Source of the DNA: Candidatus Altimarinus sp. | GTDB taxonomy: Bacteria; Patescibacteriota; Gracilibacteria; BD1-5; UBA6164 | Direction of reading: 5' to 3' | Length of the DNA: 64,000 nt | Assembly (NCBI GenBank): GCA_020724225.1 | Contig: DYHI01000003.1 | Coordinates: forward strand, 1,103 to 65,102 | In this document: in pieces, positions 22,940 to 61,870 of the stretch | How positions within the stretch are numbered: the first letter of the stretch is position 1 | Layout of the letters: every line of letters begins with the position of its first letter | Made by a program: the position numbers and the translations under genes | Notes under the pieces: generated by a model | Seen by the model: only the letters and a program-made list of their open reading frames with translations | What the model was told of the DNA's origin: nothing | Databases searched by the model: none

Positions 22940-24586
22940 TTAAACTAAATTCTTATAAATATTTTCTACATATGAATCTACATTTTTTCATTTTAATGCT
23001 CTTTCAAAATGAAATTCGTATTTTTTATAAACTAAGTCATTGTTTAAGAAATTACTTCAAAGACAAGTCCAAAATCTATAAGCACATTTTGAGTTTAATT
23101 TATGCCAAAAATTTGAATATAGTTCTTGTTTCCCATTATAAAAATCTTCTAAATCATTTGCATAATAATCTTCATCGTAAATAGGTGTTAGTGCATAGTT
23201 GTTAGTATTTAGATTATATCAAACTACATTGTCATCCTCGTGCTTGACACGGGGATCTATTAAATTGTTAGAGTCATTTTTATAGATTCCTGCATCCGCA
23301 GGAATTACAATTAGTTCTTCAAACTTTGTACTACCAAAACCATAGCTATAAAATTTCTCTATATATTTTCAATTATTTCAATAAATCACTTTTACAACAT
23401 AATCTCTCTTTTTTTCTAAAAGTATGTTTTTCATACTGTCTTCTAAGTTTGTTATTTGATATGGAAGAAATCTATTATTTAGTAAATCGAGTATTATTTC
23501 TTCTTGTCTTTTTTCATCTCTTTTTTCATCATTTAGTGGTCAATTTACATAATATCTTTTAAATTTTGCATCTAGATTTGTAGGAGATTTTACAAAGTTT
23601 AAATTGTTCAAATAATTTATTTTTCATAGTTTATTAAATTTTGCATTTTTTATTTCATAACTCACTCAAGCTTCAAAATGAGTAATAGGGAAGTGTTTAC
23701 CATATCTTTGCATCGTACTTTTTTCTATACTTACAACTTCATCTAGTCATAGTATATGTACCTTTGAAGCTTCACTATCTAACTTTGATGGATATCAAAT
23801 TCATTGTCATATAAAAGCCTTACAAAAATTTTTTGATTTTGAGTAATCAACATAGTCCACCATTCATTCTTCAAATTTAACATAGTTCCATTCTATTTCT
23901 TCTTTTCTTGTTTTTATATACTCAGATGCAAATTTTTTCCTTTTATTTACATCTTCTATATCAAGTAATTTTATATTTCACTCTAGCTCATTTCTAGTTG
24001 CCATATACAAAACTGTTTCGTATTTTTTTGAAGAAAACATATCAAATATATAATTATTTGAATTATCAATTTCGCTTGGCAAAGTATCTACTTCTGCATA
24101 AACTATTTCTTTGTCTGAGTATACAAAAAGTGTCATTACATCATCCTCATTCGTCAAATAATCATTTTCAAAAACTAATCACTTAATTTTTATTCATTTA
24201 ATAGCTATTTCTTCCTTATTTCTTAGGATTTTATAAGTAAATTTTGGTAAATATTTATCCAAAAGGGGAGTCAAGAACTTAATTGTCTCAGGAATCAGTA
24301 AAATTGGTAAATTATTTAAATTTTTATACATTTCGCTTAAAGTATAGGGATCAAAATGATCACAATGTGAATGACTTATGAAAATAGCATCAATTTCTCA
24401 AAGTTTATCATAATCAATAGTTAATGTCGGATTTCTAGCCATCAAATCTCAAAAGGCATAATTTGTAAGCCATGCATCAGACATTATTTTTACAGGTTTT
24501 CAGTCTGCATTTTCTATATTTATCAGAAATTCTGAGTGTCAAAGGTAGTCGATTTGCATATGTGAGGGGTATTAAAAATATCGTCA
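22940..24586 (-). CDS. Metallo-beta-lactamase-fold hydrolase with a C-terminal extension and an in-frame repeat insertion
   Basis: LPGHSEFLI and ISHSHCDHFD (HxHxDH). 548 aa. The only in-frame ATG (24586) lies inside a repeat copy. The ATG at 24558 is in a dead frame. Confidence 0.75.
23231..23308 (-). repeat. Palindromic modular element, in frame and in sense in the MBL-fold gene
   Basis: Reverse complement reads gtaattcctgcggatgcaggaatctat...atagatccccgtgtcaagcacgaggatgac. Encodes VIPADAGIYKNDSNNLIDPRVKHEDDN. Confidence 0.9.
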
Positions 24587-24608
24587 TTCCTGCGGATGCA
24601 GGAATCTA
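24582..24608 (+). repeat. Single hairpin module overlapping the 5' end of the MBL-fold gene
   Basis: gtcattcctgcggatgcaggaatctat. On the minus strand its GGAATGAC supplies the ATG at 24586. Confidence 0.85.
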
Positions 24609-24734
24609 TAAAAAGTAATTAAATCTTTATGTATTTTATAGATTTTTTTAAAAAAAGAAAATAAAAATATCCTATTTTTTGCTTTTAAAACTAATATATA
24701 GTACAATAATATAAATTAATTACTTAAAAGATAT

Positions 24735-24965
24735 ATGTTTTTAAGATTTTACAAAAGAAAAGAAATTCCTTTATGGAAAAAATATGCTGACTCTATTTTA
24801 GTAGCTATTTGATTAATATTTATCTGGAAAGGTATTTGGAATATAGCAGATCAGATTTTTGGTTTTATATGAAATATTTGGATTGAAAATATTGTTTCTT
24901 TTATAGTTTGAGTTAGTATTTTAGTCCTTACTGACAGATTTGTGGAACAATTTATTGATGATTAA
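24735..24965 (+). CDS. Small membrane protein (76 aa)
   Basis: MFLRFYKRKEIPLWKKYADSILVAIGLIFIWKGIWNIADQIFGF... with two hydrophobic helices. Confidence 0.55.
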
Positions 24966-24987
24966 TATAATATTTAACATAATTATT

Positions 24988-25248
24988 ATGAAAGAATTAG
25001 ATAAAAAAATAATAGAATTATTTAGAGTCATTTACGATTTAGATGAAAAAGATATAAATGATTTACAAAAAACAATAAAAGACTTAAGCGATGATGAAAA
25101 AAAGTCTACTATAATTGCATTGTACAAAAGGTATGAATCAAGAATAATTAATTCAAAACATCTTGTAGAAAAACTTCAAACTATAAAAAATAATACAGAT
25201 GAATTTTTGGATGAAATAAATTCAAAAGATATAAAATTTAATTTTTAA
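24988..25248 (+). CDS. Hypothetical small protein (86 aa)
   Basis: MKELDKKIIELFRV... from track ORF 24940-25248. The internal ATG is preferred. Charged and helical. Confidence 0.5.
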   Translation: MKELDKKIIELFRVIYDLDEKDINDLQKTIKDLSDDEKKSTIIALYKRYESRIINSKHLVEKLQTIKNNTDEFLDEINSKDIKFNF

Positions 25249-36764: not shown

Positions 36765-38993
<2,229 letters not shown>

Positions 38994-39323
38994 AATTATA
39001 ACAATTACTACCTAGGATTTTTGCTAAGGTAAAATAAAATATAAATAAATTTTAATCAATATAAATTCATTTTCAATTCTATTTTATTTTTTACAACTTT
39101 TTAACTATTTGAAATTTATTAACTTTTCTTGTTTACATTTTTTATACAAAAACCAATTTTTAAAACAAAAAATCATATATTTTTATCGAAAAAATAGTAG
39201 AAAAATCATGTATTTCCTGTAAAATAATAAAAGTTTATCGAAAATTATTTTCGCTATATTAAGCCAGAATTACAATACATATATTTTAAACAACATAATA
39301 TTATATTTCGTCAAGCTTATTTT

Positions 39324-39353
39324 TTGGCAATTAAAATTAATTCCAGGTATAAT
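39324..39353 (+). promoter_or_regulatory. Near-consensus sigma-70-type promoter
   Basis: TTGGCA (39324-39329), 18-nt spacer, TATAAT (39348-39353). It faces a region with no ORF. Confidence 0.55.
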
Positions 39354-39359
39354 ATATAT

Positions 39360-39862
39360 GTATTAAGTTAAGTTCTTTTACATTTTCTTACTCTCCTAGA
39401 TGGGAAATACAAAACCTAGTATCACTCCCTAGTAAACATAAGTTTACTCAACCAAACCAAAAAAACACAAAAATAAAAACAAAAACAAGGTGTTAGCGGT
39501 AAGATAAATTATGTCCGTCTTTCTCAAATTAATTTTTGACAGAAAGTTGGTTTTATAAGACGGATATTATTTATCTTCAAACATACCTTCAAAAAAATAA
39601 AAAATTAAAAAATTTTTTAAAACAAAAAACAAAAGAGCATGGTGAATAGCTCTTAAATAATTACCCAAGGATAGTAAGAAAGGTGTAGGATAAAGTTCTA
39701 ATGAATCTTTACCTATACCAAACCGTAATAAAGGTTATTACAAAAACTAAATCCTTTTTCCCCTGGACAACTAAACATATTTATATAGTCCAGGCATGTG
39801 AAACTGGATTATATAAAAAAGCTAAGTCCCTTCTACCAAGAATACTTAGCTAATTTTTTTGT
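39360..39862 (+). ncRNA. Candidate ~500-nt structured non-coding RNA of unknown class
   Basis: No ORF over 30 codons in any frame under code 25. Nested long hairpin aagataaattatgtccgtctt...aagacggatattatttatctt (39501-39577). Further hairpins 39766-39815. A-rich linkers. Terminal hairpin agctaagt...acttagct (39820-39851) followed by a T7 run. Confidence 0.45.
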
Positions 39863-39874
39863 TTAAATTTTTAA

Positions 39875-39909
39875 ACAAAAAAAATACCAATATCAGTATA
39901 TTGGTATTT
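39875..39909 (-). terminator. efp terminator
   Basis: The minus strand reads aataccaatata-ctg-atattggtatt followed by tttttttt. Confidence 0.8.
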
Positions 39910-39921
39910 AAATAATTTAGA

Positions 39922-40470
39922 TTATTTAACTTTCTCCATAAAATCTCCTGTAGAAGTATTTACAACTATTTCATCTCAAACTTCAATATTTCAAGGAACT
40001 CCTATTTTCAATCAAGTATCTGTAACTGCATCTTTCATATAATTTCATGATGAAGTTAAATCAACTTCTGCAATTTTTAATTTTACATAAGTAGGCAATA
40101 TAATTCAAACAAATTTTCATTCATATTGTTGTATATCAATTGTACTTCATTCTACTAAGTAAAATTTCATATCTCCTATATCATCATCATTTAGTTCTAT
40201 TTGTTCATAAGTTTCTTGATTCATAAATACAAACATTCAAGACGATTCATACAAAAATTCAAAAGTTGTTCTTTCTAAAATAACATCATTTAATTTATCC
40301 TCACCTGAAAAAACTCTATCAGTAGATCATCAATTTGATATATTTTTTAATCTCATTTTTATCGTTGTTGCTCATCTACCTGCTCTATGGAACTCCCATT
40401 TATTTACAAAGAATAAATCTCAATCTATATCAAGTACTGTACCTGGTTTTGCATCAAATGCTGTTTTCAT
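39922..40470 (-). CDS. efp: Elongation factor P
   Basis: MKTAFDAKPGTVLDIDGDLFFVNKWEFHRAGRGATTIKMRLKN... 182 aa. Confidence 0.9.
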
Positions 40471-60580: not shown

Positions 60581-61191
60581 ATGACATACAATTTAAGTTT
60601 TAATCCGCTTATTGAAAGTGATACTTTTGATAATACAGAATCTAGAAGATCTTTTGAAGAATCTCACTATACAGCAAAAAAGTTATATTTGACTGAAGTT
60701 CAGTGACTAGCAAATAAAATGAACATTGAAAGAATTTTAGAAAATGATCACCCAAGAGCACAAGCTTTATATGATTGGATTATAAGTGATGATAAAATAA
60801 CAGAATGGTATTTAAAAAATAACGATAAAATAAGACTAGTTCCAGGTTGAATTGAAATACTTTGAGATATTTACGATTTAGAAGATACAATAGAAAATAA
60901 AGTAATCTATTATGGTTTATTTACAATGAATTATGCTGAAAAATTGCATCTGACTGATGAAAATCAGTACCAGACTTTTCAAAAGTACTAGAAATTTTAC
61001 CTAGTTTTCCAAAAGATTGTTGGGTAAATTTTTTCAACTATGTTATGAAAATGAAATGATATTACTTATCAAGCTGAGAATATTCAGTATGTTCTAAATC
61101 ATATTCTGACTGAAGAGGTATTGCTTTTTGAGGTGTTAAAGATGTAGAAAATGGTATTTGATGAAAATTAAGATTAGTAAGATTAAAATAA
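60581..61191 (+). pseudogene. Hypothetical protein with a DUF1566-like C-terminus, split by an apparent -1 frameshift
   Basis: Frame A runs ATG 60581 to TAG 60989-60991 (136 aa). Frame B is open 60895-61191 and encodes ...PKDCWVNFFNYVMKMKGYYLSSGEYSVCSKSYSDGRGIAFGGVKDVENGIGGKLRLVRLK with no upstream ATG. Confidence 0.45.
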
Positions 61192-61201
61192 TTTTAAATT
61201 A

Positions 61202-61249
61202 ATAAAAAACTATTTTCAAACAAAAATTGAAAATAGTTTTTTTATTTTT
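61202..61249 (+). terminator. Terminator hairpin, copy 1 of a 48-nt direct repeat
   Basis: taaaaaactattttcaaacaaaaattgaaaatagtttttttatttttt. Confidence 0.8.
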
Positions 61250-61319
61250 TAGTATACAAAAAATTTGATTTTTACACAAATAGTATACAATTAAAATAAT
61301 ATAAATTAATTTTAAAAAT

Positions 61320-61490
61320 ATGCTATCAAAAGATGCAATGGAAGATTTAAAAAAAGATTATACTTTTGAAGAAATTCAAAAAATAAGTATTAGTTTGAGA
61401 AAAGTTAGAGAATGAAAAGTTTTATCAAAAAAACAAGTCAAAAATTTTATTGATAACGATCTATTTTCTAAATATTCAATTAATGTTTAA
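61320..61490 (+). CDS. Putative antitoxin (56 aa)
   Basis: MLSKDAMEDLKKDYTFEEIQKISISLRKVREGKVLSKKQVKNF... The stop overlaps the toxin ATG (aATGtttaa). Confidence 0.55.
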
Positions 61491-61761
61491 TGTTTTTTAT
61501 TCTGAAGATTCACTTATAGATTTAAAAGAAATTGCTGATTTTATATCACAAGATAACCCATTTTATGCAAACAAAGTAATTGATATTATTTATGACAGCA
61601 TTGAAAAATTAGAAATCTTTCCATTATTATGAAAAGAGAGAAAAGAAAATTTGAGAGAAATAATTGACCCTAAATACTGATTTAGAATAATTTATGAGTT
61701 AAATACAGAAAGTAAAATAATTAACATAATCTCAATTTTTAAATATAAAAATAACTGGTAA
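61483..61761 (+). CDS. RelE/ParE-family type II toxin
   Basis: MFNVFYSEDSLIDLKEIADFISQDNPFYANKVIDIIYDSIEKLEIFPLLGKER...YGFRIIYELN...INIISIFKY pattern. 92 aa. Confidence 0.7.
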
Positions 61762-61770
61762 AAATTTTCT

Positions 61771-61818
61771 TAAAAAACTATTTTCAACTAAAAATTGAAA
61801 ATAGTTTTTTTATTTTTA
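61771..61818 (+). terminator. Terminator hairpin, copy 2 of the 48-nt direct repeat
   Basis: taaaaaactattttcaactaaaaattgaaaatagtttttttattttta. Differs from copy 1 at 2-3 positions. Confidence 0.8.
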
Positions 61819-61843
61819 TAATCATTAAGAATTAACATTATTT

Positions 61844-61870
61844 ATAGATTCCTGCCTTCGCAGGAATGAC
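61844..61870 (-). repeat. Single hairpin module just upstream of elp3
   Basis: atagattcctgccttcgcaggaatgac. Its ATG (61866) is in frame with elp3. Confidence 0.85.

Follow-up and report, generated by a model that had tools for sequence, protein, structure and literature searches.

About a dozen classes of large (>400 nucleotides, nt) structured bacterial RNAs of unknown function have been described, by our own estimate, and each of them has led to unexpected biology, like RNA nanocages or membrane ribonucleoproteins (RNPs). The RNA presented here, a further candidate for this set, was found between the genes ligA and efp in a stretch of 64,000 nt from Candidatus Altimarinus sp. (Gracilibacteria; assembly GCA_020724225.1, contig DYHI01000003.1, positions 1,103 to 65,102). 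This whole stretch is referred to as the window, and coordinates are those of the window unless otherwise indicated. Among the closest described systems, ROOL and GOLLD use covarying kissing loops and A-minor contacts to build RNA-only dimers or nanocages; some of these loops, at first seen only as covariation, proved to be intermolecular, and both RNAs are often encoded near tRNA islands in prophages (PMC12286853). OLE is thought to serve as an RNP scaffold (PMC12286853, PMC3413148).

Comparison with its homologues marks out positions 39360–39860 of the + strand as an independent non-coding RNA gene of approximately 500 nt, representing a previously undescribed RNA family. A preliminary description of the locus, made from the letters of the window, had proposed a novel structured RNA running from a promoter to a terminator and devoid of an open reading frame (ORF). 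All the elements that it lists were found where it places them. Conservation and covariation were both found, a match to a known family was absent, and the unit holds no conserved ORF. It is very probable, judging from these comparisons, that the RNA is real, novel, structured, and independently transcribed.

Conservation and covariation

The locus is conserved across the genus and the family. The source genome (G000) is a metagenome-assembled genome of 1.17 Mb in 54 contigs with a completeness of 94.6%. BLAST recovered the whole unit at 75–86% identity in all seven other genomes of the genus, as well as a second copy in the source genome itself (contig C53, 72% identity) and three copies in genome G006. 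All remaining genera of the family gave matches to the core, and a profile searched across the source genome detected two copies and no more. One genome per species (~185,000) was then scanned for the core GGUGAAY-N-GC plus TYACCNAA at fixed spacing, and 42 contigs were returned, 41 of which hold a full-length homologue and four of which hold tandem pairs. All but two of these contigs are labelled Gracilibacteria, Patescibacteria, or 'Peribacteria', the exceptions being a chance match (L051) and a 5.3-kb contig in a Campylobacterales bin that is probably mis-binned (L074). Removal of near-duplicates left 37 representatives of 410–579 nt, 51–85% identical to the window copy, over which conservation was counted.

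Covariation was sought in these homologues and found to be strong in the 3' domain, in the full-length set, and in the long-range stem P2. For the 3' domain, a covariance model (R1; 140 positions, 35 pairs) was used to realign 67 hits, 50 of them distinct. In this alignment—the only one made with a covariance model, fitted to that model and leaning towards structure—88.3% of the cells are paired, versus 68.6 ± 0.6% after shuffling, 34 of the 35 pairs show compensatory changes, and 365 compensatory cells stand against 108 ± 9 in the shuffles. The covariation score reaches 0.585, compared to at most 0.152 when the partners are slid by one to three columns. A structure-blind, full-length MAFFT alignment (A1) covering 51 pairs of P3, P5, P7, P10, P12, a pseudoknot (PK1), and a kissing loop gives 93.2% paired cells versus 77.7%, 323 compensatory cells versus 94 ± 8, and a score not exceeding 0.123 in the slid controls (in both tests, the shuffle control ignores phylogeny, whereas the slid controls keep it). 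P2 was tested by duplex energies, because MAFFT mis-registers this stem between genera. In this alignment-free test, cognate strands pair with a mean of −14.6 kcal/mol, versus −6.5 kcal/mol between strands of different RNAs, and the cognate partner ranks in the top 10% for 35/37 RNAs; a control region exhibits no such effect.

Secondary structure and tertiary contacts

The + strand folds with a minimum free energy (MFE) of −128.9 kcal/mol (z = −8.64 versus shuffles), while the − strand reaches z = −3.96. The RNA folds into approximately twelve helices, in which P2, of 13–17 base pairs (bp), closes a 5' domain comprising P3–P7, and a 3' domain comprising P8–P12 follows (Table 1). In the structure-blind alignment, P3a and P3b are paired in 95.5% and 93.5% of cases, with compensatory changes in 5/5 P3b pairs. 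P7 is 98.4% paired, with pair types AU, GC, and UA and compensatory changes in three of its five pairs, and the inner stem of P5 is 89.4% paired, with compensatory changes in all nine. In the model-fitted alignment, such changes affect 7/7 pairs of P9 and 16/16 pairs of P10 and P11 (83.2% and 88.0% paired, respectively), and P12a and P12b are paired in 93.0% and 97.5% of cases through many pair types.

Other helices are variable in sequence, since P1, P4, P5, P6, and P8 form hairpins in the homologues despite unrelated sequences. The regions of P1, P5, and P8 fold with z < −1.5 in 28/35, 37/37, and 35/37 homologues, respectively, and a hairpin occupies the position of P4 in 29/37 homologues, again with unrelated sequences, and that of P6 in 31/37. 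The length of P5 ranges from 20 to 146 nt in the family. The strong nested hairpins of the preliminary description (39432–39447 and 39501–39577) correspond to P4 and P5, and both appear in the MFE fold.

Invariance is concentrated elsewhere: 44 columns are identical in all 37 representatives, and most of them are unpaired. They include ten adenosines of linker 1 and a comparable run in linker 2, GG.GAA of the P7 loop, U.ACC.AA after P7, G and UU of the P9 loop, one C of UUCCCCU, and one C and one A of ACCMA, the loop closed by the terminator hairpin. The long A-rich single-stranded linkers noted initially are real and constitute the most conserved part of the RNA. Two motifs, the (A5Y)3 linker and UUACCMAA, are present twice each. 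In the P10/P11 region, UUCCCCU is conserved and the internal loop, AUGUGAA, is asymmetric.

The 5' and 3' domains are connected, as the covariation indicates, by a kissing loop of 5 bp between the loops of P3 and P9. This contact is 97.3% paired and contains two covarying pairs (U-A in 21 and C-G in 14 sequences; C-G in 22 and U-A in 11), the remaining three pairs being canonical and near-invariant. Elsewhere in the family, the P3 loop reads AAUCC, AACUC, or AAUCU and the P9 loop GGAUU, GGGUU, or AGAUU, and both change in concert. A second contact, PK1, would be an H-type pseudoknot between the invariant P7 loop GGUGA and a downstream UYACC. It is pairable in 99.5% of cases and rated as probable rather than proven, because within the family the change is one-sided (G-U 29, G-C 8), with no compensatory change. 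In a diverged relative from the sister family (genome G125, see below), the kissing loop is fully compensated (CCUCA:UGAGG) and PK1 holds a compensated pair (GGCG:UGCC), both judged by eye from a single sequence. Two other pairings were discarded. The J1/2 motif (GNUCNUUAAA) shows no cognate preference for the P9 loop, its place being taken by the P3–P9 kissing loop, and the P12 loop shows none for the P7 loop or the internal loop of P10/P11.

The alternative pairings described initially around 39762–39815 met with different fates. CCUGGAC/GUCCAGG corresponds to P11 and is borne out by covariation, whereas UAUAUAGUCCAG/CUGGAUUAUAUA exists as the MFE pairing of a single sequence and competes with P10/P11. 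This competing pairing (39777–39788 with 39803–39814) shows a certain preference for cognate strands, which rank in the top 10% for 16/37 RNAs, versus 23/37 for P11, and its strands are not independent of P10/P11.

Transcription unit and coding potential

The near-consensus promoter of the preliminary description is present (Table 1). Promoter-like sites are not enriched as a class in the region, with 13 found versus 13.2 expected, and the credibility of this promoter comes from its conservation: 36/37 homologues keep a TATAAT-like −10 box 6 nt ahead of the conserved 5' G. Most of the 37 also hold a TTG-type −35 box at a spacing of 17–18 nt. The GTCAAG box located further upstream reappears as GTCAA near −50 in several other genera, and may represent an upstream promoter element or the site of a regulator.

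At the other end, the terminal hairpin and the T7 run noted initially are kept in all homologues as P12 and its U tract, and the hairpin also carries a conserved loop, ACCA. A simple terminator scan of the region did not flag this element, probably because the P12 loop is too long and the G-C pairs too few for the scan criteria. The −10 box at a fixed distance and the conserved 3' terminator indirectly support transcription of the + strand.

The unit could also be read as a cis-acting leader or riboswitch, as an antisense RNA to ligA or efp, or as the messenger of a small protein. In nearly all genomes the primary copy adjoins ligA, the pairings around 39762–39815 resemble an expression platform, and a 50-aa ORF is found at 39701–39853. 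However, the RNA gene points away from ligA and has its own terminator before the convergent efp, the gene on its 3' side differs between genomes, and the extra copies lie next to unrelated genes. The coding version is rejected, as in all other members of the genus TTG replaces the ATG of this ORF and a stop interrupts it after five codons; among the 37 homologues, the longest ORFs reach a median length of 49 aa at positions that are not conserved. Taken together, these readings are scarcely credible.

Relation to known RNA families

The 4227 models of Rfam 15, which include OLE, GOLLD, ROOL, HEARO, and raiA, gave no match at gathering thresholds anywhere in the window. With E-values up to 10, the region 38900–40000 yielded nothing beyond chance matches to hairpins, none of them above 22 bits. 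In 12 homologous loci, the same models recognized flanking tRNAs only, and in the GC-richer relative from G125 nothing. The preliminary description had recognized no signature of RNase P, transfer-messenger RNA (tmRNA), signal recognition particle (SRP) RNA, or 6S RNA. ARAGORN found neither tRNA nor tmRNA, the latter marked by tRNA-like ends and a tag reading frame, in the window.

A highly diverged housekeeping RNA—6S, SRP RNA, RNase P RNA, or tmRNA—was considered as a further identity, and two such slots are formally empty, since 6S and SRP RNA both went undetected in the genome. The other two are occupied on other contigs: the RNase P RNA (RF00010) lies at G000:C40:29125-29533 with 147.9 bits, and a candidate tmRNA (RF00023) at G000:C13:8852-9306 with 45.4 bits, just below the Rfam gathering score of 47, so that it would be overlooked when this lineage is annotated by standard means. 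The presence of both elsewhere in the genome agrees with the lack of their signatures in the preliminary description. The candidate RNA itself does not match the bacterial type A model of RNase P RNA. The SRP RNA models (RF00169 and RF01854) match neither the source genome nor 41 genomes of the order, and the Ffh M domain, which binds the helix 8 motif of SRP RNA, and the SRP54-type GTPase of Ffh and FtsY are absent from the source genome and 40 relatives, where only P-loop fragments are found. SRP components are undetected even in single-contig genomes of the order. Vampirococcus and 'many other CPR bacteria' are already reported to have lost both SRP subunits (PMC8080830). Since Ffh and FtsY are absent, an SRP RNA is not expected, and this identity is discarded. 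The 6S model (RF00013) matches neither the source genome nor the candidate RNA, which at approximately 500 nt and with several domains lacks the long rod and central bubble of 6S. Multiple diverged paralogues would also be unusual for RNAs of this type, and a housekeeping identity is considered highly improbable.

In several relatives, two loops resemble universally conserved segments of 16S rRNA, namely the P7 loop, which reads ACGGUGAAUA there (window 39639–39648; 16S positions ~1375–1384), and the P9 loop, GGAUUAG (window 39731–39737; 16S positions ~785–791); both likenesses are probably due to chance. None of five universal 16S/23S motifs was found in the source assembly, which suggests that its rRNA operon was probably not assembled.

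The candidate is rated as a new RNA class, to be placed loosely among the 'large ornate' bacterial RNAs, a descriptive grouping that does not imply homology. Full-text searching found no literature linking Gracilibacteria or bacteria of the candidate phyla radiation (CPR) with such an RNA.

Distribution, copies and genomic context

A search with R1 revealed one to three copies in 64/65 sampled genomes of the family of the window genome (f1), one positive genome among 66 in the sister family f2 (G125), and none among 19 in family f3. A class-wide sample gave 9/10 for f1 and 0 of ~140 genomes from 33 other families. The filters of these searches were strict, so that weak relatives could be missed; the single f1 genome without a match (G047) gave none under lax filters either. 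The G125 homologue (38.5 bits with R1; L092:1203-1685:-, on G125:C71) spans ~480 nt, is richer in GC, exhibits the same overall architecture, and does not adjoin ligA; a second weak match lies at G125:C85:18531-18643. BLAST of this element over 67 f2 genomes yielded low-complexity matches only, and no relatives were detected in the 66 others. Either ancestral loss elsewhere or transfer could account for it.

In nearly all genomes and genera of the family, the primary copy lies 275–380 nt from the 5' end of ligA and divergent from it, while the gene on its other side varies. A diverged copy upstream of ligA was also considered for f2, f3, and G047 and rejected, as ligA abuts its neighbor there without a gap and no profile match is found. 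In four contigs from other genera (L049, L055, L061, and L070), two diverged copies stand in tandem at a distance of ~600–800 nt, and both have a separate promoter and terminator. In the tree, a distinct clade unites the second copies of L049, L055, and L070, which indicates an old duplication with both copies kept.

The contexts of the extra copies are island-like, with genes for HTH-Fic/DOC, KilAC antirepressor, HNH-WYL, and AAA_14-DUF4143 proteins, and one extra copy lies near an excisionase-like HTH gene beside a tRNA-Arg and three further tRNAs. These surroundings would suit a ROOL/GOLLD-like RNA that derives from mobile elements or phages and has become resident in the genomes. However, synteny of the primary copy with ligA extends across genera, and the tree of all copies follows the genera, with at least three independent lineage-specific duplications and no inter-genus transfer. 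Moreover, 2.9 million viral contigs gave no match to the RNA, and Rfam shows no likeness to ROOL or GOLLD. A mobile origin is considered very unlikely.

Retention in 64/65 genomes of a family with genomes of ~1 Mb, together with repeated independent duplication, points to an important and probably abundant cellular role. Within the reach of the searches made, this is the first large RNA of its kind to be specific to CPR/Patescibacteria.

Possible functions

It is proposed that the compactly folded RNA acts in trans as a structural scaffold, either as the RNA part of an RNP or in an RNA-only assembly, with OLE, ROOL, and GOLLD as the closest parallels. The invariant adenosines would make A-minor contacts or contacts with a partner, and the P3–P9 loop–loop pairing would clamp the two domains together or bridge separate molecules. 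This role is suggested by the ~45 invariant and mostly unpaired nucleotides, the two repeated motif pairs, the probable pseudoknot, and the variable peripheral P5. Also typical of compact trans-acting scaffolds or catalysts are a stem that closes a multi-helix junction, a loop–loop contact over long range, and a terminator hairpin with a conserved loop, and a base-pairing regulator or a cis element suits all of these features less well. By analogy with other RNAs, the scaffold mechanism is put forward tentatively as the most likely role, at somewhat less than an even chance, and the complete statement—a novel structured RNA gene together with its scaffold role—is held to be fairly probable.

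Several observations weigh against the scaffold. The analogy draws on further large ornate RNAs, the roles of which are themselves mostly obscure. The one-sided variation of PK1 in the family has been described above, and the only conserved neighbor of the RNA gene is ligA. The paralogues of one genome mostly share the same loop code, so that intramolecular and intermolecular kissing are not discriminated. Finally, the pairing that competes with P10/P11 could indicate a conformational switch rather than a rigid scaffold.

The repeated single-stranded motifs may instead be the binding sites of a protein that the RNA titrates, as in the sponges 6S, CsrB/RsmZ, or CrcZ. Both near-invariant linkers (AAA-AAU-AAA-AAC-AAA-AAC) comprise six A-R-N triplets, a motif that is bound by the distal face of Hfq and used by CrcZ. 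UUACCMAA is also present in two copies, and the U-rich 3' tail and the one to three copies per genome, some in tandem, fit an abundant RNA. Contrary to this fit, no Hfq was found in the 94.6%-complete source genome, which led to the rejection of a CrcZ-like Hfq sponge in spite of the two (A-R-N)6 stretches. Furthermore, the closing stem, kissing loop, and pseudoknot exceed the needs of known sponge RNAs, and each motif is present only twice. A sponge is thus regarded as unlikely, though next in probability after the scaffold.

A ribozyme, with the invariant unpaired nucleotides forming the active site, would account for the size, the pseudoknotted architecture, the tertiary contact, and the ~45 invariant positions, all of which resemble large ribozymes, and near-universal presence in the lineage suggests a housekeeping role. 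However, no substrate or reaction can be proposed for it, and Rfam detects no likeness to RNase P, group I/II introns, or small ribozymes. In addition, the RNA was not found in the sister families (with one exception in f2) and G047 holds no copy, which argues against a chemistry essential for the order. Catalysis is accordingly judged quite unlikely.

Returning to the scaffold, a bolder version would make the candidate a new class of large ornate RNA specific to a CPR lineage. It could be a homo-oligomer built of RNA alone, in which the covarying P3–P9 loops and the duplicated UUACCMAA and GGUGAA/GUGAA motifs would bridge molecules, or else it could form the core of a new RNP or ribozyme with which one family of Gracilibacteria could hardly dispense. 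This version is speculative, with a chance of perhaps one in four at our estimate. The organisms concerned have genomes of ~1 Mb and have lost even the SRP pathway. In either case, the covariation-supported model of helices, closing stem, and kissing loop opens the RNA to in vitro study with no need to culture the organism.

Features of the locus

The window has a G+C content of 24%, and its ORFs close only if TGA counts as a sense codon. TGA then amounts to ~5% of codon positions, which fits glycine (code 25) and not tryptophan. Under this code, 928 nt (38994–39921) separate the start of ligA (38993) from the stop of efp (39922), and no other stretch of the window that is free of ORFs of 100 aa or more is as long, in line with the preliminary description. 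Both flanking genes lie on the strand opposite to the candidate RNA, and the 330 nt from ligA to the promoter of the RNA are unstructured.

Table 1. Coordinates of the candidate RNA, its elements, and the flanking genes in the window.
Feature	Position	Strand	Basis or remarks
ligA, NAD-dependent DNA ligase	36765–38993	−	Code 25 translation
GTCAAG box	39310–39315	+	~50 nt upstream of RNA 5' end; invariant in genus alignment
Sigma-70-type promoter TTGGCA-N18-TATAAT	39324–39353	+	11/12 match, best site of the region
Inferred RNA 5' end (G39360) and P1 hairpin	39360–39383	+	5' GUAAGUU conserved across genera
J1/2 motif GNUCNUUAAA (GUUCUUUUAC in window copy)	Overlaps P1 (39360–39383)	+	Conserved motif
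P2 5' strand UUCUUACUCUCCU	39385–39397	+	Long-range closing stem; alignment-free duplex test
P3 hairpin (P3a GGG/CCC, P3b AUAC/GUAU)	39402–39429	+	Covariation
Kissing loop, 5 bp: P3 loop AACCU with P9 loop AGGUU	39413–39417 with 39732–39736	+	
P4 variable hairpin GUAAAC-AUAA-GUUUAC	39432–39447	+	MFE fold
Linker 1, ACAAAAAUAAAAACAAAAA	39467–39485	+	(A5Y)3 form, near-invariant; ten invariant A positions
P5 long variable hairpin	39487–39591	+	Conserved inner stem 39510–39521/39557–39568
P6 small variable hairpin within A-rich spacer	39599–39619	+	Weak A-U pairing in window copy
Linker 2, second A-rich motif copy	39617–39633	+	Family consensus AAAAUAAAAAYAAAA; invariant As, transcript positions 262–274
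P7 hairpin AGAGC/GCUCU, invariant loop AUGGUGAAU	39634–39653	+	Covariation
UUACC, proposed 3' partner of loop GGUGA (39641–39645)	39661–39665	+	Within invariant UUACCCAAG
P2 3' strand AGGAUAGUAAGAA	39668–39680	+	Alignment-free duplex test
P8 variable-length hairpin	39682–39719	+	MFE fold; apical GUUC-N4-GAAUC conserved in many members
P9 hairpin GUAAU/AUUAC	39725–39741	+	Covariation
P10 around P11	39750–39810	+	P10 39750–39760/39800–39810, P11 39762–39768/39788–39794; covariation
P12 terminal hairpin (P12a, P12b)	39820–39851	+	P12a 39820–39827/39844–39851, P12b 39831–39834/39839–39842
Intrinsic terminator (P12 and U7 tract)	39820–39860	+	U7 at 39854–39860; covariation; U-run in all homologues
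efp, EF-P	39922–40470	−	Code 25 translation

Two other stretches of the window without an ORF of 100 aa come next in length. The second-longest (60992–61865) contains two short ORFs of ~60 and ~95 aa (TGA as glycine) that look, by eye only, like an antitoxin and a RelE/ParE-type toxin, and the pair is flanked by two near-identical terminator-like hairpins (AAAAACUAUUUUCAA...UUGAAAAUAGUUUUUUU). The third-longest (24560–25247, 688 nt) gives no pronounced folding signal (z = −1.2 and −1.7).

Comparison with described systems

RNase P RNA is similar to the candidate in size (~400 nt), long-range closing pairing, pseudoknot, invariant unpaired nucleotides, variable peripheral hairpins, and lineage-wide presence. 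However, the real RNase P RNA of this genome is encoded on contig C40, and the candidate lacks its signatures and is confined to one family.

The 6S RNA and the CrcZ/CsrB sponges are, like the candidate, stand-alone, probably abundant, and trans-acting RNAs that have a strong promoter and a terminator, carry single-stranded motifs in more than one copy—(A-R-N)6 twice in the candidate—and possess paralogues in some genomes. 6S forms a rod of ~180 nt whose large central bubble imitates an open promoter. In contrast, the candidate is much larger than these RNAs, comprises several domains with long-range tertiary pairing, and has no 6S-like rod.

OLE (ornate, large, extremophilic), an abundant and RNP-forming RNA from anaerobic Firmicutes, shares with the candidate a size class (~600 nt), a lineage-restricted chromosomal gene, conserved unpaired nucleotides, and a complex fold. 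Unlike OLE, the candidate occurs in another phylum that uses code 25, shows no Rfam match to it, and has no gene resembling those of OLE-associated proteins conserved at its side, where only the divergent ligA is found.

Finally, the candidate differs from ROOL and GOLLD in the absence of an Rfam match in sequence or structure, in the chromosomal and syntenic location of its primary copy outside prophages, in its absence from the viral contigs searched, and in its confinement to one family of Gracilibacteria, plus the diverged relative in G125. Despite these differences, ROOL and GOLLD resemble the candidate in size class (~500–800 nt), in their many helices, pseudoknots, and covarying kissing loops, in the conserved adenosine-rich junctions and the variable linkers or periphery, in the lack of an identified protein partner, and in the proximity of some copies to tRNA genes.

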